A DNA stretch of 64,000 nt, from positions 2,619 to 66,618 of IMG/VR virus record IMGVR_UViG_3300037751_000382. The stretch is one strand, 5' to 3'. A program made the translations under genes and the position numbers. The notes beneath the pieces were generated by a model. It was not told the DNA's origin. It made no database searches and was given only the letters and a program-made list of their open reading frames with translations. Shown here piece after piece: positions 33,084 to 58,659 of the stretch (position 1 is its first letter; every line of letters starts with the position of its first letter). The DNA comes from a virus (taxonomy: Duplodnaviria; Heunggongvirae; Uroviricota; Caudoviricetes).

Positions 33084-33707
33084 TCAAGTTACTAATGACT
33101 TCAAAAGATATTTAGTCGCAGTTTCAGTGATCGTCGGCGAATTTTTAAGCATTCCAATTCCTACATTACAACAGTTACAGAGTATACCACGAATACTCCT
33201 TGTTTCATGACAGTGATCAATACACCAACCCTTTTTACCTGGTTCTAAAGTACCGCAAATCTTACAAGTTCCATTTTGCTCTTGCAACATTTTATTAAAA
33301 CACTCATTGTCAACCCCATATTTTCTTAGTTTCTTTTGAGCTGAAATCTTATCTTTATTCTCTTGATTGTATTGTTTTGTTTGGGTTAAAATTTTCTCTC
33401 TATTATTTTGATAGTGTTCCTTCTTTTTGGCTTTGACTTTTTCTTCATTATCATGTCTATATTGTTTCATTTGGATTGAAATTTTCTCTTTATTATCTTG
33501 ACAGTATTTCTTTTGTCGGGATACTAATTTTTCTTTATTATTGTGTCTATATTGTTTAACACGAGCTAAAATTTTTTCTTTATTAGTTTGATAGTAGTTC
33601 TTACTTCGGGCACTAATTTTCTCTTTATTATCTTGATAGTATTGCTTCTTGTAAGCCACCACTTTCTCTTTATTGTCGTGATCTTGATCTTGATCTTTTG
33701 TGTTCAT
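33084..33707 (-). CDS. HNH homing endonuclease (endonuclease VII family) with six KxYYQxNKEKI repeats and no zinc ribbon
   Basis: GTCKICGTLEPGKKGWCIDHCHETRSIRGILCNCCNVGIGMLKN. Repeats encoded by roughly 60-bp DNA repeats at 33330-33690. Confidence 0.65.
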   Translation of the reverse strand: MNTKDQDQDHDNKEKVVAYKKQYYQDNKEKISARSKNYYQTNKEKILARVKQYRHNNKEKLVSRQKKYCQDNKEKISIQMKQYRHDNEEKVKAKKKEHYQNNREKILTQTKQYNQENKDKISAQKKLRKYGVDNECFNKMLQEQNGTCKICGTLEPGKKGWCIDHCHETRSIRGILCNCCNVGIGMLKNSPTITETATKYLLKSLVT

Positions 33708-41462: not shown

Positions 41463-42016
41463 AAACTTGTTCCAAATGTAAACTGTCTAAAGATACTAAT
41501 GAATTTCATAAGAATAAAAGTAGAAAAGATGGCTTTAATTGTCAATGTAAAGAATGTATAAAAGAATATAGTAATCGCCCAGACGTAAAACAACATAACA
41601 AAGAATATATTAAGGAATATGGTAAGGGATATCGTGATCGCCCAGAAGTAAAACAACGTAACAAAGAATATAATAAAAAATATTATAAGGAATATTTAAA
41701 TCGTCCAAAAGTAAAACAACATAAAAAAGAATATTATAAGGAACGTGGGTATAACACAAAATATGGTTTAACATTAGAAACAGTAAATCAATTAAAGATT
41801 TTGTTGGAAAATAAATGTTGTCTTTGTGGTTGTTTAACAGAAGAATTAGTAATTGACCATGATCATAATACAAATGAAATTAGAGGATTACTTTGCCATA
41901 ATTGTAATTTAGGGTTAGGAAGATTAGGTGACACAATTGAAGGACTTACAAAAGCTATAAAATATCTACAAAGTAAACTTGGTCAAAAATTACTTTTAAT
42001 GATAGGAAACTCATGA
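41459..42016 (+). CDS. HNH homing endonuclease (endonuclease VII family), intact
   Basis: CSKCKLSKDTNEFHKNKSRKDGFNCQCKEC ribbon, KEYxKxY repeats, CCLCGCLTEELVIDHDHNTNEIRGLLCHNCNLGLGRLGD. Confidence 0.7.
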   Translation: MKTCSKCKLSKDTNEFHKNKSRKDGFNCQCKECIKEYSNRPDVKQHNKEYIKEYGKGYRDRPEVKQRNKEYNKKYYKEYLNRPKVKQHKKEYYKERGYNTKYGLTLETVNQLKILLENKCCLCGCLTEELVIDHDHNTNEIRGLLCHNCNLGLGRLGDTIEGLTKAIKYLQSKLGQKLLLMIGNS

Positions 42017-45341: not shown

Positions 45342-46481
45342 ATGAAGTGCCCCATTTGTAATAGTAAAAATATACAGCGTTTTTACAATCTTGGTCTTAG
45401 GCCTTTAAGCGTATCACACTTAAGTGACACATTTGTAAAATCTCTTAGTCTACCTAAACATGAAATCGATATGTGGACGTGTAGAATTTGCTCACATGTT
45501 TTTAATATTAGATATGATGAACGCAATATTAATTATGGTTGTTCAAGTTGTACTATGTACAATAGTGGTAAGCTTTGGGATAACACAGTAAAAAATTGGT
45601 ATAAAGATTATAATATTTTTACTGAGAAAGATGTGATTGTAGAGATTGGCGCGGGTAATGGTTCTTTTTTAAAGTGGTTACCAGGCAATAGTACAAAAAT
45701 TGCTTTTGAGCCGGGACCCGATAATGAAAAATGTAAAGAAAAAGGTTTAAATACTGTGGAAGGTTATTTTGATCCCGAAACAGATATTCAATTTTTTAAA
45801 CCCACTTACATAATAATGCGGCATGTTTTAGAGCATATAACTAATCCTAAAGAATTTATTGATAGTATCTTGGAAAATTGTATTAAAGAAAATATTTTTC
45901 CTACGATGATCATAGAAGTCCCGTTAATAGAGAATGCTTTAACAGACGCTAGGATCGAGGATTGGGTATATGAACATCCCCACCATTTTACTATAACTAG
46001 TTTGAAAAAGTTATTTGCTAATTGGAATGTTTTTAAGATTGATACTATTTATGACAATGAAGTAGTGATTATAAAAGCAAATCCGAAACCAATTTTAAAC
46101 AATTTTTCTATTGTAGCTCTTAAAAATTTTGCTAATTTAAGTTTAACTAATGCTCGTGAGCAACTAATTAGTTGGATTAAAGCGGAAAAGAAAATAGCAC
46201 TTTGGGGTGGCGCCGGTAAGAGTTCTATGTTCCTTTATGCCTTAGGTATAGATGATTCCTTTGGTATAGTAGTTGATAGTGATGAAAGGAAGGTTGGCAA
46301 GTATGTTCCTGGGAAAGCAATAAAAATACACTCTGTTAATGAGTTAATAAATAATCCAGTTGACATTATTATTGCGACTACCAGCTGGCGATCAGATGAT
46401 ATTTTTGAGGAAATTAAAAATAAAAATATTAAATGTGAAAGTTTTTATATTTTTAAAAATGGTAAATTTGTAAAGGTATAA
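45342..46481 (+). CDS. TylCIII-family NDP-hexose C-methyltransferase-like SAM methyltransferase
   Basis: N-terminal zinc ribbon CPICNS...LGLRPL...CRICSHVF. SAM motif VIVEIGAGNGSFL. IIEVPLI and EHPHHF. C-terminal domain KKIALWGGAGKSSMFLYALGIDDSFGIVVDSDERKVGKYVPGKAIKIHSVNEL. Confidence 0.7.
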   Translation: MKCPICNSKNIQRFYNLGLRPLSVSHLSDTFVKSLSLPKHEIDMWTCRICSHVFNIRYDERNINYGCSSCTMYNSGKLWDNTVKNWYKDYNIFTEKDVIVEIGAGNGSFLKWLPGNSTKIAFEPGPDNEKCKEKGLNTVEGYFDPETDIQFFKPTYIIMRHVLEHITNPKEFIDSILENCIKENIFPTMIIEVPLIENALTDARIEDWVYEHPHHFTITSLKKLFANWNVFKIDTIYDNEVVIIKANPKPILNNFSIVALKNFANLSLTNAREQLISWIKAEKKIALWGGAGKSSMFLYALGIDDSFGIVVDSDERKVGKYVPGKAIKIHSVNELINNPVDIIIATTSWRSDDIFEEIKNKNIKCESFYIFKNGKFVKV

Positions 46482-46484
46482 ACA

Positions 46485-46658
46485 ATGAGCAGAATTAGTG
46501 ACGGCGAAGTGTATCGTATTGATGATGAAGGAAGTATTATTTATATGGCAGATGTAATTGCCGAAATGATGGGTTATAAGAAACCTTTTGTAGTTCATTA
46601 TTTTGATGGCAATCCTTTAAATAATACACGTGAAAATTTACGAGTAATGGAGTTATAA
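46485..46658 (+). CDS. mini HNH-motif protein (57 aa)
   Basis: VVHYFDGNPLNNTRENLRVM resembles the H-x-D-G-N-x-x-N-N...NL core of HNH_3 nucleases. Confidence 0.3.
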   Translation: MSRISDGEVYRIDDEGSIIYMADVIAEMMGYKKPFVVHYFDGNPLNNTRENLRVMEL

Positions 46659-48442
46659 TGGCCAAGAAAGACTTAATACTTTACCCCGCAGATTTTACTA
46701 AAGCAACACCGATAGCAAAACGTAACCTATTCCTGAGGAAGTTACTTGATCAAGATTATCATACAATTGCTCAATCTATTATCAAGTATCTTATTTTCTT
46801 TGAGGAAAATCACTATTTTGCCTATAACCTTGAAGATCAATTAAGATTTGATGAGTTTGTTTCAGCAGTATTTTCTACTATTGTTGACCCTAATTTTGTT
46901 CCGAATGATAATGATGCAAAGTGCTTGGTAGCATGTAACCATTTATTCAGTAATGTTGTAGCTACTTCTTCCTACGGCACTACTGATGGTCCCTTGCTCC
47001 ATATTCTTAAGCAACAGAACAACGCCGCTAAAGTGTTATTTCTTTATAACTCACGGTGTAAAATTAAAATTGATCTTAAAAAGTTTTTTGATGTATCTCC
47101 ATTAATTGCTTCTATTTGGTATAATACTTTTATGTTGGGAACAAGTTGCCCTTCTCTGATCCAACAGGAGAATCTATTCTTACATTTAGAAAATATGGAT
47201 GAACGCTGGACACCTCCTAATAGGCACGTGAGTTCATTGTATTTTACTTGTACATACATGAATCCTATAAATGATAGACGGGTAAAAGGAATAATTAATA
47301 AATCGCTTAAGAATCATTTAACTGTAAAGATAGTTAATGAACCTAATCCAAATAAAATTGCCATTGTTACTAGTAAATGGCATCGTAATCACGCGGTGTA
47401 CAAAAGCGCAGGTCCATTAGTAGAACAATTAAGAGGTCACTATGATTTAACTCTTATTCATTTAGGTTGGAAACTTCCTGATAATTTGTGTACAGAAGGT
47501 TTTAATAAAGTGATACGGGCAGCTTTTCCTCAGGAAACAAATAACAGTGATCTTAGATTGCCGGATGAATTGTTGAAAAATGATTTTGGTTTAATCTATT
47601 TCCCAGATATCGGCATGACGGACGAGTGTACGTGGATGAGCAATATTAGAATGTCACCTATTCAAGTTGTAGGGTATGGTCATCCAGCGACAACTGGCGA
47701 TAACAACGAAATTGATTATTTTCTTGGCGGAGATATCGAGAAAGATGTAACAGATTGTTATTCAGAGAAAATGATACTTATTCCAGGGTTAGCTCAACAT
47801 CCTGCTTGGCCAACATATGCACGGAAGTATAACTGGAAAGAGAATGAAGCTGTCCAGATCAATTGTGTCTGGGGTCCCGATAAGTTTTCATATACACTGT
47901 TAAAGGTACTTCAAAGAATTAGTCAATTATCTACTGTTCCTCATACTTATAATTTTTATCCTTCACCAGGTATAAATCGTTATGCTGGATTTGTGCCTTT
48001 TAAAAAGGACATCCAATCTATACTCCCTAATTCAATTATTCACGGTGATAAAGAATATTATGACTATATGGAGAGTGCTGAGAAGGGGGACTTTAGTATT
48101 AACTCTTTTATTTTTGGAGGATTTAATACTATTATAGAGTCTTTATTCTTAGGATTACCTGTAACGACTATAGAAGGTGATAGATTTTACAATAAGGCTG
48201 CTAGTTTCTTACTGCGAAAGATTGGTTTCGGAGAACTTAGTTCCACAAATATTAATGAGTTTATTAATATCACAGTTAGGATGATAAATGATAAAGATTA
48301 CAGAGGAGGAAAAAGGAAGGAATTAGCTGAAATGAATATTAAGGAATTATTATTTTGTGACCCTGGAGATAGTTTCAAAAGAGCTATTGATTATATAATT
48401 GCTAATCACCCTATAAAAGAAAAGTGTACACTGATATCATGA
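46658..48442 (+). CDS. GT41-family (O-GlcNAc transferase-like) glycosyltransferase
   Basis: IAIVTSKWHRNH, SPIQVVGYGHPATTG...IDYFLGGD...YSEKMILIPG and DFSINSFIFGGFNTIIESLFLGLPVTTIEGD...ASFLL align to OGT catalytic lobes ([61 protein letters not shown]..ASRVA). Confidence 0.65.
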   Translation: MAKKDLILYPADFTKATPIAKRNLFLRKLLDQDYHTIAQSIIKYLIFFEENHYFAYNLEDQLRFDEFVSAVFSTIVDPNFVPNDNDAKCLVACNHLFSNVVATSSYGTTDGPLLHILKQQNNAAKVLFLYNSRCKIKIDLKKFFDVSPLIASIWYNTFMLGTSCPSLIQQENLFLHLENMDERWTPPNRHVSSLYFTCTYMNPINDRRVKGIINKSLKNHLTVKIVNEPNPNKIAIVTSKWHRNHAVYKSAGPLVEQLRGHYDLTLIHLGWKLPDNLCTEGFNKVIRAAFPQETNNSDLRLPDELLKNDFGLIYFPDIGMTDECTWMSNIRMSPIQVVGYGHPATTGDNNEIDYFLGGDIEKDVTDCYSEKMILIPGLAQHPAWPTYARKYNWKENEAVQINCVWGPDKFSYTLLKVLQRISQLSTVPHTYNFYPSPGINRYAGFVPFKKDIQSILPNSIIHGDKEYYDYMESAEKGDFSINSFIFGGFNTIIESLFLGLPVTTIEGDRFYNKAASFLLRKIGFGELSSTNINEFINITVRMINDKDYRGGKRKELAEMNIKELLFCDPGDSFKRAIDYIIANHPIKEKCTLIS

Positions 48443-50448: not shown

Positions 50449-50793
50449 ATGAACATTGACTGGAGAAATGATAAGTTTGAAGAGTTGTTGCTTACTGAAA
50501 ACATTCCACATGACAAGCGAAAGCGAATCATGGTCAAATTGCAGCAATTTGGTGATTCATTATTTGATGAAGGGTATCAGCTTGGGACACAAGAAGCAAA
50601 TTGTGATGCGAATTGTGATGCGAATTGTGATGAGAATTGGCAGGACGTGTATAAGGATGGTTTTAACGATGGTTACACAAGCGCATGTGACGATATAGAT
50701 GGAGATTATGATGAAGGAAATTATGGTGAAGAGGACTTTGAAGCAAATGATAATAATGTTGTTGTGAACATTACTAATAATTTTTATCAATAA
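50449..50793 (+). CDS. acidic repeat protein (ANCD x3, DGFNDGY motif)
   Basis: Very Asp/Glu-rich. Contains the 12-bp x3 DNA repeat. GY motifs shared with the small ORF at 50821-50995. Confidence 0.4.
   Translation: MNIDWRNDKFEELLLTENIPHDKRKRIMVKLQQFGDSLFDEGYQLGTQEANCDANCDANCDENWQDVYKDGFNDGYTSACDDIDGDYDEGNYGEEDFEANDNNVVVNITNNFYQ
50599..50634 (+). repeat. three tandem 12-bp repeats (aattgtgatgMg)
   Basis: aattgtgatgcg / aattgtgatgcg / aattgtgatgag. Confidence 0.85.
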
Positions 50794-50996: not shown

Positions 50997-52682
50997 ATGG
51001 AAATATTTAAATCAGAACAAAATCCCATGTTCCGCAACAAATTTAGCGATGACATTTTTAATGCTAAATATGCACATGAAGGTTGTGAAACATGGGAAAA
51101 ATTAGCTAATACATTGGTAAACGATGTTTGTGGAGATTATTTATCTAATACTGAACAGGAACAGCTTAAAGAGTATATTAAAGATTTAAAGTTTATACCT
51201 GGTGGTAGGTATCTTTATTATGCAGGGAGACCAAAACGCTTTTGGAACAATTGCTATACTCTGAAAGCAGAAGAGGATACGAGAGAGGATTGGGCTGATC
51301 TTTCGTGGAAAGCTGAATCTTGTTTATTAACTGGTGGTGGTATTGGAATTGACTATAGCCGGTACAGGGCATCAGGTAAAACATTAAAAGGTACAGGAGG
51401 AATTGCCAGTGGACCAATTCCTAAGATGTTGATGATTAATGAAATAGGTAGAAATGTAATGCAGGGTGGTGCCCGCCGCAGCGCATTGTACGCTTCATTA
51501 AATTGGCAACACGATGATATACCCCAGTTTCTTAAAGTTAAAAATTGGCATGCAATTAATATTCCAGGAACCAAATTAACTTTATCTGATGTAAAGGAAT
51601 TCGATTTTAATTGGCCGGCTCCTTTGGATATGACTAATATAAGTGTAAATTATGACACTAAGTGGTATTTAGATTTTTGTAAAAACAATAATCCAGGTGA
51701 AATATTTTATGGAAATGTTTTACAAGCACTTAGTACCGGGGAACCAGGATTTAGTTTTAACTTTTTTGAGAAAGAAAATGAAACACTTAGAAACGCTTGC
51801 AGTGAATTAACTAGTGAAGATAATTCAGATATTTGTAACTTGGGCTCTATTAATCTCAGTCGAATAGAAACTTTAGAAGAGTTCAAAGAAATAGTAGAAG
51901 CAGCCACTAAATTTCTATTGTGTGGAACATTGAAAGCTGATGTCCCTTATACACAAGTCGCTAAAGTAAGGGAAAAGAATAGACGGATTGGCTTAGGTTT
52001 GATGGGCATTCATGAATGGCTCCTTAAAAGAAATAATCGCTATGAAGTTACGCATGAGTTACACCAGTGGTTGAGAGTGTATCGTGGAATAAGTAATGAT
52101 GTTACCCGAAAGTTTTGCCATAAATTAAGTCTTAGTGAATCAGTTGGTAAGAGGGCTATTGCGCCTAATGGGACGATTTCAATTTTGGCAGGAACTACAA
52201 CAGGTATTGAACCCCTTTACGCAGTAGTATATAAACGTAGATATTTACGTGAAGGACGTAAATGGCATTATCAATATGTTGTGGATAGCACAGCCCAAGA
52301 ACTTATTAGTAAATATGGTTTGAATCCTGATAATATTGAAACTGCAATTGATTTAGCTGTTGATTATAAACGAAGGATGAAGTTTCAAGCAGCGGTTCAA
52401 GAGTATGTTGACCATGCGATAAGTAGTACAATCAATCTTCCTCAATGGGGGAGTAAACATAATAACGAGGACACTGTTAAGGAGTTTGCTGAAACCTTGG
52501 CCCATTATTCACCCCGATTAAGAGGATTTACATGTTATCCTGATGGTGCACGCGGTGGACAACCTATTACAAGTGTCCCGTATAATGAGGCAAAGGATAA
52601 TTTAGGTAAGGAATTTGAAGAATCTCTAGAAACTCATGATGTGTGCCAACTTACTGGGCGCAGTGGAATTTGTGGTGTTTAG
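50997..52682 (+). CDS. nrdJ: ribonucleotide reductase, probably class II (adenosylcobalamin, monomeric phage type)
   Basis: GGGIGIDYSRYRASG...GTGGIASGPIPKM nucleotide-loop motif, CNLGSINLS active-site region, RIGLGLMGIHEWL. No adjacent small subunit gene. Confidence 0.6.
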   Translation: MEIFKSEQNPMFRNKFSDDIFNAKYAHEGCETWEKLANTLVNDVCGDYLSNTEQEQLKEYIKDLKFIPGGRYLYYAGRPKRFWNNCYTLKAEEDTREDWADLSWKAESCLLTGGGIGIDYSRYRASGKTLKGTGGIASGPIPKMLMINEIGRNVMQGGARRSALYASLNWQHDDIPQFLKVKNWHAINIPGTKLTLSDVKEFDFNWPAPLDMTNISVNYDTKWYLDFCKNNNPGEIFYGNVLQALSTGEPGFSFNFFEKENETLRNACSELTSEDNSDICNLGSINLSRIETLEEFKEIVEAATKFLLCGTLKADVPYTQVAKVREKNRRIGLGLMGIHEWLLKRNNRYEVTHELHQWLRVYRGISNDVTRKFCHKLSLSESVGKRAIAPNGTISILAGTTTGIEPLYAVVYKRRYLREGRKWHYQYVVDSTAQELISKYGLNPDNIETAIDLAVDYKRRMKFQAAVQEYVDHAISSTINLPQWGSKHNNEDTVKEFAETLAHYSPRLRGFTCYPDGARGGQPITSVPYNEAKDNLGKEFEESLETHDVCQLTGRSGICGV

Positions 52683-52694
52683 AAAGGAAATTAA

Positions 52695-53135
52695 ATGAAA
52701 CTTTTAGTGAAATTATTACACCCAAACGCTAAGTTACCAAAAGTAGCTTATGGAAGAAATGAGAACGGACGATATGGATCAGCGGGCATTGATTTATTTA
52801 GTGTAGAAGATGTTACTATTTTACCATTTAATATTGGAATAGTTAGGCTAGGAATTGCAACTGAATTTCCTCCTGAATATGTGGGAATTTTAAAAGATCG
52901 TTCTAGTATGGGTAAACGTGGTTTCCACGTTTTTGGAGGGGTATTTGATTCAAATTATAGGGGAGAATGGATACTTCTTCTCTATAATGCAACATCTTAC
53001 TTGTCTACTATTTTCTCAGGCGAAAAAGTGACACAAGTAATTTTTCAAAAATTACCAGAAGTATCTATTCACTTAGTTAATGAGTTAAGTTCAACCGATA
53101 GAGGTGAAGGAAAATGGGGAAGTAGTAATGAATAA
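52695..53135 (+). CDS. dut: dUTP diphosphatase
   Basis: dUTPase motifs GSAGIDL, KDRSSMGKRG, FDSNYRGEW and a C-terminal Gly-rich arm. Confidence 0.8.
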   Translation: MKLLVKLLHPNAKLPKVAYGRNENGRYGSAGIDLFSVEDVTILPFNIGIVRLGIATEFPPEYVGILKDRSSMGKRGFHVFGGVFDSNYRGEWILLLYNATSYLSTIFSGEKVTQVIFQKLPEVSIHLVNELSSTDRGEGKWGSSNE

Positions 53136-53670
53136 AGAAACAATTGAAACATATATGTCGGCAGCGTATCGTTTAGCTAAGCAAAGTTCCGATAGTTCCT
53201 GTCAAAATGGAGCTATCATACTTTTAAATGAGACTTTATTAGGAACAGGTTACAATGAATTTCCCCCCGGAGTTCAATTTGATCTTATAAAAGCCACTCA
53301 ACGACCTGAAAAGTATATTTATTATGAACATGCTGAACGTGCAGCTATTTACCATTGCGCAAAATATGGAAATGGCACAATGGACGGAATAATGATTTGC
53401 CCATGGGCTTGCTGTTGCGATTGTGCCCGAAGTATCATTTGTGCCGGTATTAGGAAAGTTATTGTTCACGCTGAACGTATGGATGTGACCAGAGATTTTT
53501 GGCAGGAAAATATAAAAATTGCTTGGGGAATGTTGACAGAAGCTAAAGTTAAAGTAGAATTGTACAGAGGGCCGGTTGGTGTAAAACCTATTCGAGTGAA
53601 TGGGAAATTGTGGAGCCCGGATACTTGTGACTTTGTGGAGAAAGAAAATGACAGTGACATATGCAGATGA
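53128..53670 (+). CDS. dCMP (deoxycytidylate) deaminase
   Basis: Zinc motifs HAERAAIY and CPWACCCDCA (H-A-E...P-C-x-x-C). Start overlaps the dut stop by 8 nt. Confidence 0.75.
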   Translation: MNKETIETYMSAAYRLAKQSSDSSCQNGAIILLNETLLGTGYNEFPPGVQFDLIKATQRPEKYIYYEHAERAAIYHCAKYGNGTMDGIMICPWACCCDCARSIICAGIRKVIVHAERMDVTRDFWQENIKIAWGMLTEAKVKVELYRGPVGVKPIRVNGKLWSPDTCDFVEKENDSDICR

Positions 53671-53815
53671 TCATGGAAACAATGAGAATTCAAAAAATGA
53701 AAATTGGCGAGATGAATGGTACGATGAAGAGGATTGGTATGATGATTGGGAAGATGATTGGGAAGATAATTGGGAAGATAATTGGTATGATGAATTTGAC
53801 AGGGACGAGGCTTAA
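53648..53815 (+). CDS. 56-aa hyper-acidic Trp-rich protein (DNA-mimic candidate)
   Basis: MTVTYADDHGNNENSKNENWRDEWYDEEDWYDDWEDDWEDNWEDNWYDEFDRDEA. GGAG RBS, overlaps the deaminase 3' end. Confidence 0.45.
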   Translation: MTVTYADDHGNNENSKNENWRDEWYDEEDWYDDWEDDWEDNWEDNWYDEFDRDEA

Positions 53816-54374
53816 GGAGAAAGAAAGATGATTGATTATTGGGATGAATGGGGTGTTTGGCGTGGTTTTACCTGAGGAATATAGATATGATGAACAATAT
53901 GAACCATGTGAAGTTGAGGAGGATTAAGGTGTAATGATGGAAGTTGTTAAAGAACCTTGTTTCAGTGATTTGGATGTTGGGCAGTGTTTTACGTATAAGA
54001 ATCACTCTCACCTTTACCTAAAAATAAGCGGAGATTCTTATTTCTGTTTTAGTTCCAATCTGATATGGAAAATGAATAATTTTGATCTACAGTCCCTAGT
54101 GTCAAAAGTAAATGCTAAACTTACTTGGACATATCAACAATAAAGGATAAACAAATGAAAGTCGAGCAAGAAGAAAAAAGAACAGCTGTACGTTTTCTGC
54201 TCTATTAGTGGGGGAAAGTTTTATCCTTGCCGGGCGGGATAATTATGTAAGAATGAAATTAGGAAAAGATTCTTATTTTAATTTTAATGAGGGTGCTGTT
54301 TACACTACAGTCCGAGGTGTAATAGATAATTCAATAGTAGAACGAGTAGATGTAAAATTGATTTGGAGTAAACT

Positions 54375-56849
54375 TTGAGACGAAATTGCATTTATTTAGA
54401 TACAGAAAGTGTTGGGTTCCATGGTTTAATGGTTCTTATGCAATATGCGTATGATGATGGCCCCATTTCTTTATATGAGCCATGGTTAAATTATCCAAAA
54501 GATACACTTGATCTAATTGAAAAGATATTGGATAAAACGTTAATAGGTTTCAATTTATGTTTCGATCATTTTCATCTTTGCAAATTATATACTACATTTA
54601 GATTGTTACCATTAAATGAGTTACCCGTTAATCTCCCAGTGTTACAGATAGCTGAAGCGGAAAGAGATGGGAGAGATGGTCCGTGTTTAAAGCCAAGAGG
54701 TGCCCTTGACCTTATGCTTCACTCACGAAAAGGTCCTCACCAATTCCTAATGAGCAGAAATGAAGTAAGAATAAGAAAAATTCCTATTCTTATAGCTGAG
54801 GTTCTTAGAGAGGAATTAGAAAAAAGGATCATCTTTGATCCAATTCTTTCAGCTAAATGGGGGATATATGATCGACAACGTAAGGGTATAGTGGACCCAG
54901 AGTTCAAGGACATAGCTCTTAAATTTCATCCTGATAGAGGTTTAAAGTCATTAGCTAAACATTGTTTAGGACTTGACCCTGAGTTTAATTCGTTTCAGGA
55001 AATTTATCCCGAACGGGAATATAAACTGTTTGAATTAGGTTATATACCGTTTGCAACGGGTGCTTCTGATGAAGAATGGAAAGGTTATTCCCGATCGGGA
55101 GAATTTAAAGGTTACACGTGGCCGAAACATATTCACAAGGACATCGAACACTGGAGAAGTAATAATGATGCTAGGAGATATGCTGAAGATGATGTTAAGT
55201 ATACTCGATTACTTGATGAATATTTTGGTTATCCTGACCCCAATGATGATGACTCTATTCTTGCTTGCATGGTGGCTGCTGTAAGATGGCACGGGTTTAA
55301 AATTGATAGTGAAAAGATAAAGGAGTTACTGACTAGTGCAGAGCAATTAATTAAATTGTCACCGGTTAATGTTAATAAACCAACTGAGGTACGGCAATAT
55401 ATTAAAGAGGTAATGGACCCTAGCGAGTGTTTAGCGCTCGATGAAAGCACTAAAAAGGAAAATTTAGAAAAAATTCGGGATAAATTAGTAGTTGAGGAAG
55501 AAGAAATTTGTATAAAGTGTATGGGCGCAGGTTGCCCACGTTGCGACGGCAAAGGCAACCTGTATCCTGGGCCAATGTTAGCATCACTAAGGGCTGGGGA
55601 GATATTAAAGATTAAGTCAGCTGTTAAGGAAGCTGATATGTTTAAAAAGTTACTGGCTGCAGGGCGATTTCACGCTTCATTCAAAGTGATTGGCACGCTA
55701 TCTTCGAGAATGGCGGGCGGGGATGGTTTAAACGCTCAAGGGATAAAAAAGAGCAAAGAAGTAAGAGAGTCATTTCCCTTGGCTTGGGATGGGATGATCC
55801 TGAGTGGAGGAGACTTTGAATCTTTTGAGGTCACAATAGCAGATGCCGTGTTTAAGGATAAAGGTATACGAAGAGATTTATTAACAGGTGTAAGTATACA
55901 TGCCGTGATGGCCACTAAGTTGTATAGCAAGACCATGGAAGAGGTTTTAGCGTCCAAAGGATATGCGGATGGTGGAACCATTGATATGTACACCCAAGGC
56001 AAGCGAGCGATCTTTGGAACACTTTACGGAGGTGACGCGGGCACGATACATAGAAAATTATCTATTCAAATGAAGATTGCAGAGAAGGCATTTAATGAAT
56101 TCCAAGTACAGTATCCAGGGGTAAAGGAAGAGAGAGATAGGAATGCAAAATTATTTAGTGCTCTTATACAGAAAGAAGGCATTGGAACACGCATTGAATG
56201 GAATGAGCCAATTGATTATAGTGAGACATTTTTAGGATTTAAAAGGTACTTTACACTTGAGAATCAGGTAATAAAGGAATTGTATATCCTTGCTCAAACA
56301 ATTCCTGCTTACTGGAATTTGAAAGACGAGAACGGGGACCCTATTAAATTAGTGCGGAGTGATAGGGATCAAACTATAGGGGGCGTTGTCGCCAGCGCAT
56401 TATACGGAGCGGCATTTCAGATACAGAGTAGTAATATTAGGGCAGCTAATAACCACCTGATCCAGTCGCCAGGGGCACAAATTACCAAGGCAGTACAACG
56501 AGCTATCTGGGATATTCAACCGATTGGGATTAATGAGTTCATTGTAGCCCCTATGAACGTGCATGACGAAGTATTGAGTGTGACTAATCCTGATTATATA
56601 ACTATTGTAAAAGAAGTAGTTAAAAATAAAGTCGAAGAATATCGTCCCTTTGTCCCTTTAATTGGAATGCAGTGGAACTCTGGAATGAAATCTTGGGGCG
56701 AAAAAATTGACAGAGATGATCCTAGAGTGTATAATATAGAACCAGATAAAGTTAAGATTTTAAGCGACATGGACGATCCTGACTGTGATGACCTGATGAC
56801 ATTTGAACAAGACCTTGATGAGTGGGAGAGTGAAGATGAGGAAGCCTAA
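54375..56849 (+). CDS. family A DNA polymerase with 3'-5' exonuclease domain
   Basis: Exo I YLDTESVGF. Pol motif A DFESFEVTI, motif B KRAIFGTLYGG, motif C VHDEVL. Confidence 0.8.
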   Translation: MRRNCIYLDTESVGFHGLMVLMQYAYDDGPISLYEPWLNYPKDTLDLIEKILDKTLIGFNLCFDHFHLCKLYTTFRLLPLNELPVNLPVLQIAEAERDGRDGPCLKPRGALDLMLHSRKGPHQFLMSRNEVRIRKIPILIAEVLREELEKRIIFDPILSAKWGIYDRQRKGIVDPEFKDIALKFHPDRGLKSLAKHCLGLDPEFNSFQEIYPEREYKLFELGYIPFATGASDEEWKGYSRSGEFKGYTWPKHIHKDIEHWRSNNDARRYAEDDVKYTRLLDEYFGYPDPNDDDSILACMVAAVRWHGFKIDSEKIKELLTSAEQLIKLSPVNVNKPTEVRQYIKEVMDPSECLALDESTKKENLEKIRDKLVVEEEEICIKCMGAGCPRCDGKGNLYPGPMLASLRAGEILKIKSAVKEADMFKKLLAAGRFHASFKVIGTLSSRMAGGDGLNAQGIKKSKEVRESFPLAWDGMILSGGDFESFEVTIADAVFKDKGIRRDLLTGVSIHAVMATKLYSKTMEEVLASKGYADGGTIDMYTQGKRAIFGTLYGGDAGTIHRKLSIQMKIAEKAFNEFQVQYPGVKEERDRNAKLFSALIQKEGIGTRIEWNEPIDYSETFLGFKRYFTLENQVIKELYILAQTIPAYWNLKDENGDPIKLVRSDRDQTIGGVVASALYGAAFQIQSSNIRAANNHLIQSPGAQITKAVQRAIWDIQPIGINEFIVAPMNVHDEVLSVTNPDYITIVKEVVKNKVEEYRPFVPLIGMQWNSGMKSWGEKIDRDDPRVYNIEPDKVKILSDMDDPDCDDLMTFEQDLDEWESEDEEA

Positions 56850-57464
56850 AGATCATATAACGCCTGCCGGATATAAGTGGTGCAGTGGCTGTAATAAAGA
56901 TGTACCTGTAAATGTGTTCCATAAGGATAAAAATGCTAAAGATGGGTTAAGTTATACATGTAAAAAATGTACAAGAACATACGATCAAAAATACTATAAA
57001 AATAATTCAGATAAAATAAAAGAACAGTGTCAAAAATATGGCCGAAATAATATAGATAAAAGGAAAGAATATAGTAGGAAATATCGTCAAAATAATTTTG
57101 AAAAATAAAAGAAACAAACCGAAAATATAATTATGGAATCACCAATAATGATTTTGATAAAATATTAAATTGTCAAGGAAATTGTTGTATTTTATGCGGG
57201 TCAACTAGCCCTGGTTCAAAACTTAATTGGTGTATTGATCATGACCATAATGATCTTATTAAAGGTAAAAATATTCGCGGAATTTTATGTCATGAATGCA
57301 ATTTTTTACTAGGCAACATTGAAAAATTTGCAAAGAAACTTAATCTTGAAACAAGTGTTGCCCTTTGTGTTATTGTTGATTATCTTAGAAACGGCAAAGA
57401 AAAAGTACAAAACATTTTAAAGGAGAACGAAAGTGGATTTAAACCAACGGAAGTCGTGGCTTAG
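56836..57464 (+). pseudogene. HNH homing endonuclease (endonuclease VII family) with a -1 frameshift in an A5 tract
   Basis: N-terminal part YKWCSGCNKDVPVNVFHKDKNAKDGLSYTCKKC...RKYRQNNFEK stops at 57108. The C-terminal part (YGITNNDFDKILNCQGNCCILCGSTSPGSKLNWCIDHDHNDLIKGKNIRGILCHECNFLLG) is open in the -1 frame from 57102 and has no ATG. Adding one A to 57101-57105 fuses them as NNFEKIKETNRKYNYG. Confidence 0.55.
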
Positions 57465-57808: not shown

Positions 57809-58057
57809 ATGTCCACTATGAATATAGACCAATTAATCGCTAAATTTAAATTAATCTATGGAGATTTTTATGTGACCTTTTTCCGTGAGACTACGCATAC
57901 AGGTGACCTAGAAATAAGATTTAAGGAAGGGTTCCCACCAGTAATTATATTACCTGTGGTTAATTTTAATCCTGATTTTAATGATATTTCTCCTAGTATG
58001 GATGATCCTGGTTGGGAGTTAGAACCTAATTATATTGCTTCTATTGGTTTAAAGTGA
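57809..58057 (+). CDS. hypothetical protein
   Basis: 82-aa ORF, ATGA-coupled to the HNH gene. Confidence 0.3.
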   Translation: MSTMNIDQLIAKFKLIYGDFYVTFFRETTHTGDLEIRFKEGFPPVIILPVVNFNPDFNDISPSMDDPGWELEPNYIASIGLK

Positions 58058-58659
58058 ATAAAAATATAGTGCCCGTTGGCTATAAACGATGTAGTTGTTG
58101 CCATAATGAATTACCGACAGCTCAATTTTCTAAAGATAAAAGTAGAAAAGATGGGTTAAATTGTCAATGTAAACAATGTCGTAAAGAATATAAAAACAAA
58201 TATTATAAAACCCATCATCAACAAAACAAAGATTATTATATAGCCAATAAAATGGCTATTAGAAACTATCAAAATGAATATAATAAAAATTATCGTAAGA
58301 CAAACAAAAATTATTTTAAAGAATATTCGTTAAAATATAATTTTAACCTCACTTTAACGGAGCGTGATTTGATCTTTTCCCAACAAGGAAACTGTTGTGC
58401 GTTATGTGGGAGTTTAACACCAAAAAGCAAACGTGATTGGTGTGTTGACCATGATCATAAAATTGTGGACAAAAGGAACTCAATCAGAGGTATTCTTTGT
58501 CTCAAGTGTAATATGAACATTATAGGGATGGTCGAAAATTTTGCTAATGAACAAGGTTTAGAAATTGACGTGGCAATAGCAAAAATCGCCGATTATCTAA
58601 ATAACCAAGTTTCAAGAACACAAAATTTTTTAAACAATATACCACATAAACGTGATTAA
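58054..58659 (+). CDS. HNH homing endonuclease (endonuclease VII family), intact
   Basis: YKRCSCCHNELPTAQFSKDKSRKDGLNCQCKQC ribbon, NxYxKNY repeats, CCALCGSLTPKSKRDWCVDHDHKIVDKRNSIRGILCLKCNMNIIGM. Confidence 0.7.
   Translation: MNKNIVPVGYKRCSCCHNELPTAQFSKDKSRKDGLNCQCKQCRKEYKNKYYKTHHQQNKDYYIANKMAIRNYQNEYNKNYRKTNKNYFKEYSLKYNFNLTLTERDLIFSQQGNCCALCGSLTPKSKRDWCVDHDHKIVDKRNSIRGILCLKCNMNIIGMVENFANEQGLEIDVAIAKIADYLNNQVSRTQNFLNNIPHKRD

Follow-up and report, generated by a model that had tools for sequence, protein, structure and literature searches.

A virus of the Caudoviricetes (IMG/VR record IMGVR_UViG_3300037751_000382) carries, in the 64,000 nucleotides (nt) analyzed here (positions 2,619 to 66,618 of that record; hereafter the window), a short open reading frame (ORF) for an extremely acidic protein with regularly spaced Trp residues. 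This ORF, located at window positions 53648-53815, overlaps the end of a dCMP deaminase gene. We find that it is a genuine small gene and not a product of chance, and that it encodes a small acidic phage protein, such as may act as nucleic-acid mimics. Specifically, we tentatively hypothesize that the product of 55 amino acids (aa) is a disordered polyanionic decoy for nucleic acids, an explanation that we regard as possible and somewhat short of probable. The features that define the locus are as follows.

53128..53670, + strand, dCMP deaminase gene (PF00383, 2.8e-15; phrog_174, 8.4e-21)
53533..53560, + strand, sigma-70-like promoter TTGACA-16-TAGAAT within the 3′-terminal part of the deaminase gene, 11/12 positions (consensus match only)
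53637..53640, + strand, Shine-Dalgarno-like GGAG, 7 nt 5′ of the acidic-ORF ATG (read from the sequence)
53648..53815, + strand, acidic Trp-repeat ORF MTVTYADDHGNNENSKNENWRDEWYDEEDWYDDWEDDWEDNWEDNWYDEFDRDEA, 55 aa (ORF list, gene finders, codon log-likelihood ratio)
53726..53793, + strand, 12-nt tandem repeat with consensus GAAGATGATTGG, 5.7 copies, 83% matches (Tandem Repeats Finder)

The acidic ORF begins with the ATG at 53648 and ends with the TAA at 53813-53815 on the + strand. The sequence and the ORF list agree with the original prediction on its boundaries, its GGAG ribosome-binding site (RBS), and its overlap with the stop of the deaminase gene (23 nt, given that the deaminase stops at 53670). 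The translation quoted there is also exact, except that the product had been counted as a 56-mer. An 11-mer, GGAGAAAGAAA, is common to this start region and to that of the next small ORF, which begins with the ATG at 53828. The same 55-aa ORF is called by the JGI and Logan gene finders in four other assemblies of the phage (L001, L007-L009). These are base-identical to the window, and therefore no ratio of nonsynonymous to synonymous substitutions can be calculated.

Codon usage strongly favors the frame of this ORF. When 29 long ORFs from the window are used to train a codon model, the log-likelihood ratio is +43.8 bits for the acidic frame, compared with -22.8 and -122.1 for the other two frames, and the choices between GAT and GAC, GAA and GAG, AAT and AAC, and TAT and TAC match the proportions of the genome. 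Because these scores favor the acidic frame, the overlapping 56-aa ORF at 53661-53831, which is rich in Met, Ile, Gly, and Lys, is an off-frame shadow. Moreover, when all six frames of the window are filtered for 24-aa stretches that contain 11 or more acidic, 5 or more aromatic, and no more than 2 basic residues, the acidic ORF alone passes. A relaxed version of this filter recovers zero ORFs from 1.0 Mb of other viral loci, which are an imperfect control in that they were chosen by a W-E-E DNA pattern.

The sigma-70-like site lies 88 nt 5′ of the acidic ORF, and the scan that revealed it finds 9 such sites against a shuffled expectation of 7.9, which is no excess. No terminator-like sites are found across 52500-54600, and RNA structure around the ORF shows no excess over shuffled controls (z = +1.4). 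On these two results, we reject a Trp-codon attenuator or leader peptide.

The product has a net charge of -21 and an estimated mass of about 6.9 kDa. Among its 55 residues are 7 Trp, 4 Tyr, 1 Phe, 14 Asp, 10 Glu, and 7 Asn. Leu, Ile, and Pro are all absent, and there is a single Val. The protein had been described as consisting only of Trp, Asp, and Glu, which overlooks the Asn, Tyr, and Phe residues as well as an N-terminal head of 19 residues that is not repetitive. In contrast, the extreme composition that had been noted is fully apparent, with the earlier figure of about 50% acidic residues now corrected to 44% overall (24/55) and 56% in residues 20-55 (20/36), where aromatic residues make up another 31%. 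The only basic residues are K16, R21, R52, and H9, such that residues 20-55 contain 2 Arg, and the absence of a basic patch is as originally reported. Trp residues are spaced at intervals of 4, 6, 4, 4, 4, and 4, and the C-terminus is DRDEA.

The 12-nt array encodes the core of this tract, a (W-acidic3)n series of period-4 W[DE]D[DN] units. Matches to the 12-nt unit number 13 in the window versus 8.3 expected, and 4 of the 13 fall inside the array. The unit is therefore not dispersed through the window above chance, which speaks against iterons, and we reject that possibility.

The 55-aa product is probably disordered, as judged from models of its sequence. In a charge-hydropathy analysis, its mean hydropathy of 0.245 lies deep in the disordered region relative to a boundary of 0.550, and the corresponding values for residues 20-55 are 0.217 and 0.593. 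Structure prediction, which had been suggested earlier for the supposed 56-mer, was run on the 55-mer. AlphaFold, given the single sequence without an alignment, returns a low-confidence model with a predicted local distance difference test (pLDDT) score of 54, a predicted template modeling score of 0.27, and one helix only, at residues 30-51. From geometry, a Trp at every fourth residue of an alpha-helix should form a stripe that turns by 40 degrees per repeat, and should thus offer no flat dimer interface.

Exhaustive searches with sequences and profiles uphold the earlier impression that no homolog is recognizable. Neither a word-indexed search of 5.8 billion protein clusters nor a full phmmer search of 1.84 billion representatives reveals a homolog of the 55-mer. 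Likewise, there is no match in Pfam-A (E<=0.01), PHROGs (E<=1), or PADLOC, none among PDB sequences beyond one spurious match at E=1, and none by tblastn against GenBank phages. The exact repeat DNA of the ORF is not found in IMG/VR, and a literature search recovered no description of a class of hyperacidic Trp-repeat phage microproteins. The composition-bias correction in such search tools works against a query of this kind, and therefore the empty searches mean that there is no recognizable family, and are not proof of uniqueness.

The phage itself is uncultured and belongs to a lineage that, in the sequence collections searched, is rare. Its dCMP deaminase falls in only three clusters of the 5.8 billion-cluster collection (100%, 76%, and 42% identity), and no deaminase relatives are found in IMG/VR. 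A megablast search with 7 kb of the window finds no match among GenBank phages, and the PolA protein of the window is at most 26% identical to that of any deposited phage. The longest record carrying this PolA is 101,438 bp.

The genes around the acidic ORF are all on the + strand and form a replication and nucleotide-metabolism block. Its 5′ part encodes a ParB-like protein, a nucleoside deoxyribosyltransferase, ThyX, and a helicase, followed by C-methyltransferase-like and GT41-like proteins, an HNH endonuclease, and an SbcD-like exonuclease with a helix-turn-helix. Next come a class II-type ribonucleotide reductase, a dUTPase, the dCMP deaminase, and the acidic ORF, and the 3′ part encodes two paralogous proteins of about 60 aa, PolA (824 aa), an EndoVII-like nuclease, a nucleotidase, and a ligase. 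No gene for an SSB (a protein that binds single-stranded DNA) is recognized in the window. The position of the acidic gene in the middle of this block implies that it would be expressed along with the replication genes, and not among the first-injected anti-restriction genes.

Comparable ORFs occur in other phages, and their recurrence beside replication genes is what makes this gene worth pursuing. In the contig whose deaminase is 76% identical (L006), there is no ORF directly 3′ of the deaminase gene. Its 66-aa analog, MLDDNRGEGDYFDLYSFDDYDDEYDDYDDYDDRYDYEDDDWEDEYDDYADYYWDQYHSSEQELYGD, is encoded two genes farther along the small-gene cluster; acidic residues account for 47% of this protein and aromatic residues, mainly Tyr in place of Trp, for 27%. 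The clade of the window PolA comprises 1539 metagenomic proteins at E<=1e-10 and 73 IMG/VR loci. Among these, the loci L023, L028-L032, L057, and L079, whose PolA proteins are 48-50% identical to that of the window, carry a hyperacidic ORF of 60 to 88 or more aa with a conserved head, MPxDDLRY..PEDRDDDFED, as well as a DPYF motif and an acidic tract that varies in length and is interspersed with Phe, Trp, and Tyr. In L031, the one locus for which gene order was mapped, this ORF lies between the gene for an SbcD-like exonuclease and that for PolA. The acidic small ORFs in loci of the PolA clade are on the coding strand in all cases (12/12). The conserved head implies a function for at least the MPxDDLRY family.

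The acidic tract of this family also includes about 50 consecutive Asp residues in L079 (5126-5510) and runs of (DE)n and (D)n in L057 (4417-4668), which shows that length can change rapidly by slippage inside a conserved gene.

Two further examples come from unrelated contigs. A back-translated pattern search recovered from a GC-rich viral contig of 106 kb (L203) a 75-aa ORF, MSNDWDDDNFEVEYEFEFELNDDDWEDNWEDDWDTDPLDEVYDVFDDDFDDDWGDDWDDDWDGDWDDEEEDEYDF, which ends ...DEYDF. A scan of metagenomes recovered L266, which carries a 74-aa WDDD-repeat ORF that is coupled to the preceding gene at its stop codon and adjoins genes for a phrog_62 helicase and a PolA protein, the latter without BLASTP similarity to the window PolA. 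The tblastn links among these acidic ORFs were obtained with composition correction off, and thus indicate similarity of composition only, not homology. The common element is the type of protein and the type of location, and this recurrence argues for selection on composition. Free-standing hyperacidic aromatic microproteins are found beside replication genes in phages that are unrelated to one another.

In our preferred explanation, the acidic gene is translationally coupled to the dCMP deaminase gene and is transcribed along with it as part of a replication and nucleotide operon. Its product consists of the 19-residue head and a tract of 36 residues, where Trp or Trp-Tyr returns at every fourth position amid Asp, Glu, and Asn. 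This tract would have been generated, and probably resized, by slippage of the 12-nt repeat. Its carboxylates would stand in place of phosphates, and the spaced indole and phenol rings in place of bases, or of the aromatic "tip" residues of acidic tails. In this way the peptide could occupy the DNA- or single-stranded DNA (ssDNA)-binding surface of some protein, and thereby keep that protein off DNA. A host nuclease, defense protein, or nucleoid protein would be the more likely target, and a replisome protein of the phage itself would be a possible one.

Several observations weigh against this hypothesis, and caution is warranted chiefly because the Trp-acidic repeat is a generic, low-complexity module. 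DNA encoding W[DE]D[DN]W[DE]D[DN]W is present at 120 or more loci in each of two collections, one of metagenomes and one of genomes. Among the matches listed, 243 ORFs carry the pattern: 66 are larger proteins with the pattern no more than 45 residues from the C-terminus, in 63 it is internal, in 6 it is near the N-terminus, and 62 are cut off by a contig end, whereas 17 are classed as small hyperacidic ORFs, several of them without a start codon. Proteins bearing the repeat include the Obg GTPase, ATP synthase gamma, Hsp70, an RsgI/PepSY lipoprotein, and TAtT, and many others among the matches listed have, by eye, hydrophobic N-termini that resemble signal peptides. Thus 12-nt slippage in acidic tails commonly produces (W-acidic3)n, and a motif this generic is no signature of DNA mimicry. 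The period-4 motif and the 12-nt coding repeat of these cellular tails are identical to those of the window ORF. The tails differ in that each is an appendage of a folded and often extracytoplasmic protein, whereas the repeat in the window accounts for two thirds of a phage protein that stands alone.

Other points also weigh against the decoy hypothesis, which draws on composition and context. Homology of the analogs to the window ORF cannot be shown, and the available copies of the 55-aa ORF are all identical, such that selection on it is not measurable. Finally, the acidic tails of the phage T7 protein gp2.5 and of SSB end in an aromatic residue, unlike the DRDEA terminus of the 55-mer. The L203 analog, with its terminal Phe, is like those tails in this respect.

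A looser pattern, W[DE][DE]xW[DE][DE]xW, was also applied to IMG/VR and was discarded. It returned mostly WEER/WEEW strings without start codons, and long WEERWEER/WEEWWEE strings of this sort are abundant in viral contigs (L084-L202). They presumably reflect a different 12-nt coding repeat that is read out of frame or on the antisense strand.

A broader version of the decoy hypothesis, which we consider speculative and would give a low probability, holds that free-standing disordered (aromatic-acidic3)n microproteins are a convergent class of ssDNA-like decoys in the replication modules of unrelated phages. Its members would be the proteins of the window phage, L006, the MPxDDLRY family, L266, and L203. 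Aromatic rings would imitate bases and carboxylates would imitate phosphates. The peptides would titrate a host ssDNA- or DNA-binding nuclease, sensor, or nucleoid protein, or would gate the phage replisome, and their length could be adjusted quickly through slippage of the repeats.

The main competing explanation, unlikely but to be taken seriously, is that the gene is a young, slippage-born ORF of low complexity whose product has no specific target, and which is either harmless or useful only because its translation aids ribosomes in reaching small genes downstream. The core of the protein is indeed encoded by a 12-nt tandem repeat, and hundreds of unrelated proteins have acquired its motif independently. 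As an orphan, the ORF belongs to a lineage with three deaminase clusters in 5.8 billion, and the closest relative has no ORF at that place. A nearby ORF of 114 aa likewise contains a 12-nt coding repeat, which suggests that this genome is prone to such expansions. However, a young ORF does not readily account for the recurrence of hyperacidic aromatic small ORFs in the same module of relatives with about 50% PolA identity, as well as in unrelated phages, nor for their invariable placement on the coding strand within the clade. The lack of such ORFs in 1.0 Mb of other viral loci and the conserved N-terminal motif of the MPxDDLRY family also argue against it.

It is improbable, in our judgment, that the acidic protein has a role other than mimicry, such as buffering of Mg2+ or Ca2+, service as an "entropic bristle," or service as an adaptor or scaffold for enzymes of nucleotide synthesis and replication. 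The coupling to the dCMP deaminase gene and the flanking genes for ribonucleotide reductase, dUTPase, and PolA would suit such a role, as would the acidic C-terminal tail of PolA (...DLDEWESEDEEA) and similar tails on Obg and ATP synthase gamma. Against it, the L006 analog is not adjacent to the deaminase gene, the L031 module has no deaminase at all, and we know of no stand-alone phage peptide with a role of this kind.

We consider it very improbable that the protein is a folded double-stranded DNA mimic of the Ocr/ArdA type that blocks type I restriction or BREX systems. The 55-mer is indeed small, very acidic, and phage-encoded, and AlphaFold does place a helix at residues 30-51. Furthermore, DNA mimics are notoriously diverse in sequence (PMC9836394). 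Nevertheless, the 55-mer has no Pfam, PHROG, PADLOC, or PDB match and lacks the residues for a hydrophobic core, its predicted disorder and pLDDT of 54 speak against a fold, and the turning aromatic stripe should leave no clean dimer interface. The location of the gene in a replication operon behind the deaminase, and not among the first-expressed genes, also fits poorly.

Scarcely credible is a non-protein explanation, in which the array (with a period near one helical turn, inside a replication module) serves as iterons, an origin, or a spacer, or in which the acidic frame, open from 53600 and overlapping the 3′ end of the deaminase gene, is a +1-frameshift extension of that enzyme: the codon signal is strong and frame-specific, the ORF has its own RBS and ATG, the 12-nt unit has no dispersed copies, no slippery site is recognizable, the L006, L266, and L203 analogs are free-standing ORFs, and the repeats mutate yet keep Trp and acidic codons in frame, which indicates constraint at the protein level.

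Immediately 3′ of the acidic ORF lies a second short Trp-rich ORF, and the features of this region are as follows.

53814..53819, + strand, AAGGAG RBS of the 15-aa ORF, overlapping the TAA of the acidic ORF (read from the sequence)
53828..53875, + strand, 15-aa Trp-rich ORF MIDYWDEWGVWRGFT (codon log-likelihood ratio +9.6 vs -9.4 and -19.6)
53868..53927, + strand, acidic and aromatic stretch in the +1 frame, ..LPEEYRYDEQYEPCEVEED followed by a stop (codon log-likelihood ratio +16.1 vs -10.6 and -59.8)

The original prediction of a 15-aa peptide behind an RBS is sound, whereas its coordinates of 53826-53873 must be shifted by +2. The frame of this peptide stops at 53873-53875, and the +1-frame stretch belongs to an ORF at 53832-53927. 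The two together may be a duplicate acidic and aromatic gene that has been broken by a frameshift at GGTTTTACCTGA. The sequence of 53828-53927 is identical in four assemblies, which makes a random sequencing error unlikely as the source of this frameshift, and no canonical slippery site was found.

The small ORFs at 53934-54143 and 54208-54378, which precede PolA, are paralogs with 28% identity and the conserved pattern G..K..DSYF.F..V..V..KL.W. Both are kept in relatives with 76-87% identity (L003, L006), and in both lineages the acidic ORF lies beside or between them. Neither matches a family, and the AlphaFold model of the 69-aa paralog is poor (pLDDT 51). In the region 54155-54378, an ATG at 54155 with a good RBS (AAGGA) opens MKVEQEEKRTAVRFLLY, which is followed by a stop. 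The conserved C-terminal part, which is homologous to L003 and to the 69-aa paralog, is in the -1 frame, where the sole start is a GTG at 54208 without an RBS. The L006 copy of the 54155-54378 gene begins MKVEYQEPEKSWQKFS. This looks like one gene that is split at the A6 run of 54174-54179 by a frameshift, by transcriptional slippage, or by a fixed mutation. In L006 itself, the Logan call at 1154-1591 passes an in-frame TAG, and so fuses a 66-aa paralog to a 74-aa Cys-rich protein (phrog_22735). TAG serves as the stop in 3 of 48 long ORFs of the window, and thus the standard code seems to hold.

A second acidic and aromatic small protein is encoded directly 3′ of the exonuclease gene, at 50449-50793. 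This protein of 114 aa has a net charge of -20 and matches no family. Its 12-nt coding repeat, AATTGTGATGCG x3.4, specifies ANCD ANCD ANCD, and its C-terminal half reads DENWQDVYKDGFNDGY..DDIDGDYDEGNYGEEDFE. The 824-aa PolA protein also has an acidic C-terminal tail, ..SDMDDPDCDDLMTFEQDLDEWESEDEEA (..DLDEWESEDEEA), encoded at 56700-56849, and the clade consensus likewise ends acidic. Such a tail is not known to be usual in family A polymerases.

Between the helicase and exonuclease genes, positions 45342-48442 encode the C-methyltransferase-like protein (PF13489/PF08484) and the GT41-like glycosyltransferase (PF13844, a weak match). Together with the nucleoside deoxyribosyltransferase, ThyX, the dCMP deaminase, and the nucleotidase, these could hint at modification of DNA or nucleotides. 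At least five EndoVII/HNH-like paralogs are scattered through the window, at 2692-2862, 33342-33632 (- strand), 41564-41739, 56999-57113, and 58054-58659. Several of these carry in-frame tandem repeats of 45, 63, or 90 nt (of the KYYKNN.. type), and the paralogs are probably homing endonucleases.

If the decoy hypothesis is true, then phages possess a minimal, unfolded, and repeat-built form of nucleic-acid mimicry that has apparently arisen several times beside replication genes. Such peptides escape annotation by homology, given that every profile and sequence search for the 55-mer is empty, and a rule that combines composition with context could then expose hidden factors that act against the host or regulate the replisome. 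In practical terms, a synthetic peptide of 36 residues would be an easy reagent to use against DNA-binding proteins. If the hypothesis is wrong, the locus serves instead as a warning that hyperacidic Trp repeats generated by 12-nt slippage should not be taken for DNA mimics by composition alone.

How, then, does the 55-mer compare with known proteins? The uracil-DNA glycosylase inhibitors phi29 p56 and PBS2 Ugi, the first of which is given as 56 aa in length (PMC2018632), resemble it only in size and in adjacency to genes of dUTP and dUMP metabolism, and neither PDB nor PHROG searches match the 55-mer to them.

The original prediction considered the composition of the acidic ORF typical of Ocr and ArdA, and this comparison does not hold. 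Ocr is a folded dimer of 116 aa with 34 acidic residues (29%), and it stays folded after extensive charge mutagenesis (PMC3439906). The 55-mer shares with Ocr and ArdA a strong excess of acidic over basic residues and its residence on a mobile element. It is smaller and more acidic (44-56%), has neither a profile match nor a predicted fold, and is not positioned among early genes. No sequence or profile similarity to the Ocr family is found in Pfam-A, PHROG, or PDB searches. The 55-mer also has no Pfam match to ArdA, and its 55 aa contrast with an architecture of three domains and about 165 aa. An acidic-tail-like binder of DNA-binding proteins, which had been raised as the other possibility, would fit the anatomy of the peptide better.

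Phage T7 gp5.9 and lambda Gam are small acidic inhibitors of RecBCD with compact, helical, dimeric folds, and gp5.9 is a small acidic DNA mimic that is encoded among replication and recombination genes (PMC9836394). They resemble the window protein in being about 50 aa long, highly acidic, without homologs beyond their own group, and set among replication and recombination genes. Indeed, the 55-mer has a charge of -21 and is encoded in a module with genes for an SbcD-like exonuclease, a helicase, PolA, and a ligase. Unlike gp5.9 and Gam, it has no core hydrophobic residues, is predicted to be disordered, and shows no PHROG or PDB similarity.

Closer parallels are offered by acidic tails and domains that lack a fold of their own. 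The acidic tail of T7 gp2.5 is reported to compete with ssDNA for the OB-fold surface (PMC10359462, reference 31 therein), and the acidic tails of gp2.5 and bacterial SSB both occupy the cleft that binds ssDNA and dock replication and repair proteins (PMC10359462). Like the 55-mer, these are short, flexible peptides that combine acidic and aromatic residues and operate in a replication setting. The tails are tethered to an OB-fold, whereas the window ORF is free-standing with its own RBS.

The acidic domain of Gp44 from phage SPO1 provides the other close parallel. Residues 56-122 of this protein are 57% Asp and Glu, contain zero basic residues, and form a disordered region with internal repeats that is ssDNA-like in simulations, binds RNA polymerase subunits, and has been proposed to be an ssDNA mimic (PMC8208478). 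Both proteins are phage-encoded and have a repeat-built, disordered tract with more than 50% Asp and Glu, which in the 55-mer spans residues 20-55. PHROG and phmmer searches find no sequence similarity between them. The acidic tract of Gp44 is one domain of a 237-aa protein with a folded DNA-binding N-terminal domain, whereas the window encodes a free peptide, and the literature that we searched does not mention aromatic residues in Gp44, in contrast to the periodic Trp residues of the 55-mer. Regardless of these differences, our best guess by analogy is that the 55-mer would be mechanistically nearer to the acidic domain of Gp44 and to the tails of gp2.5 and SSB than to the folded mimics Ocr and ArdA.

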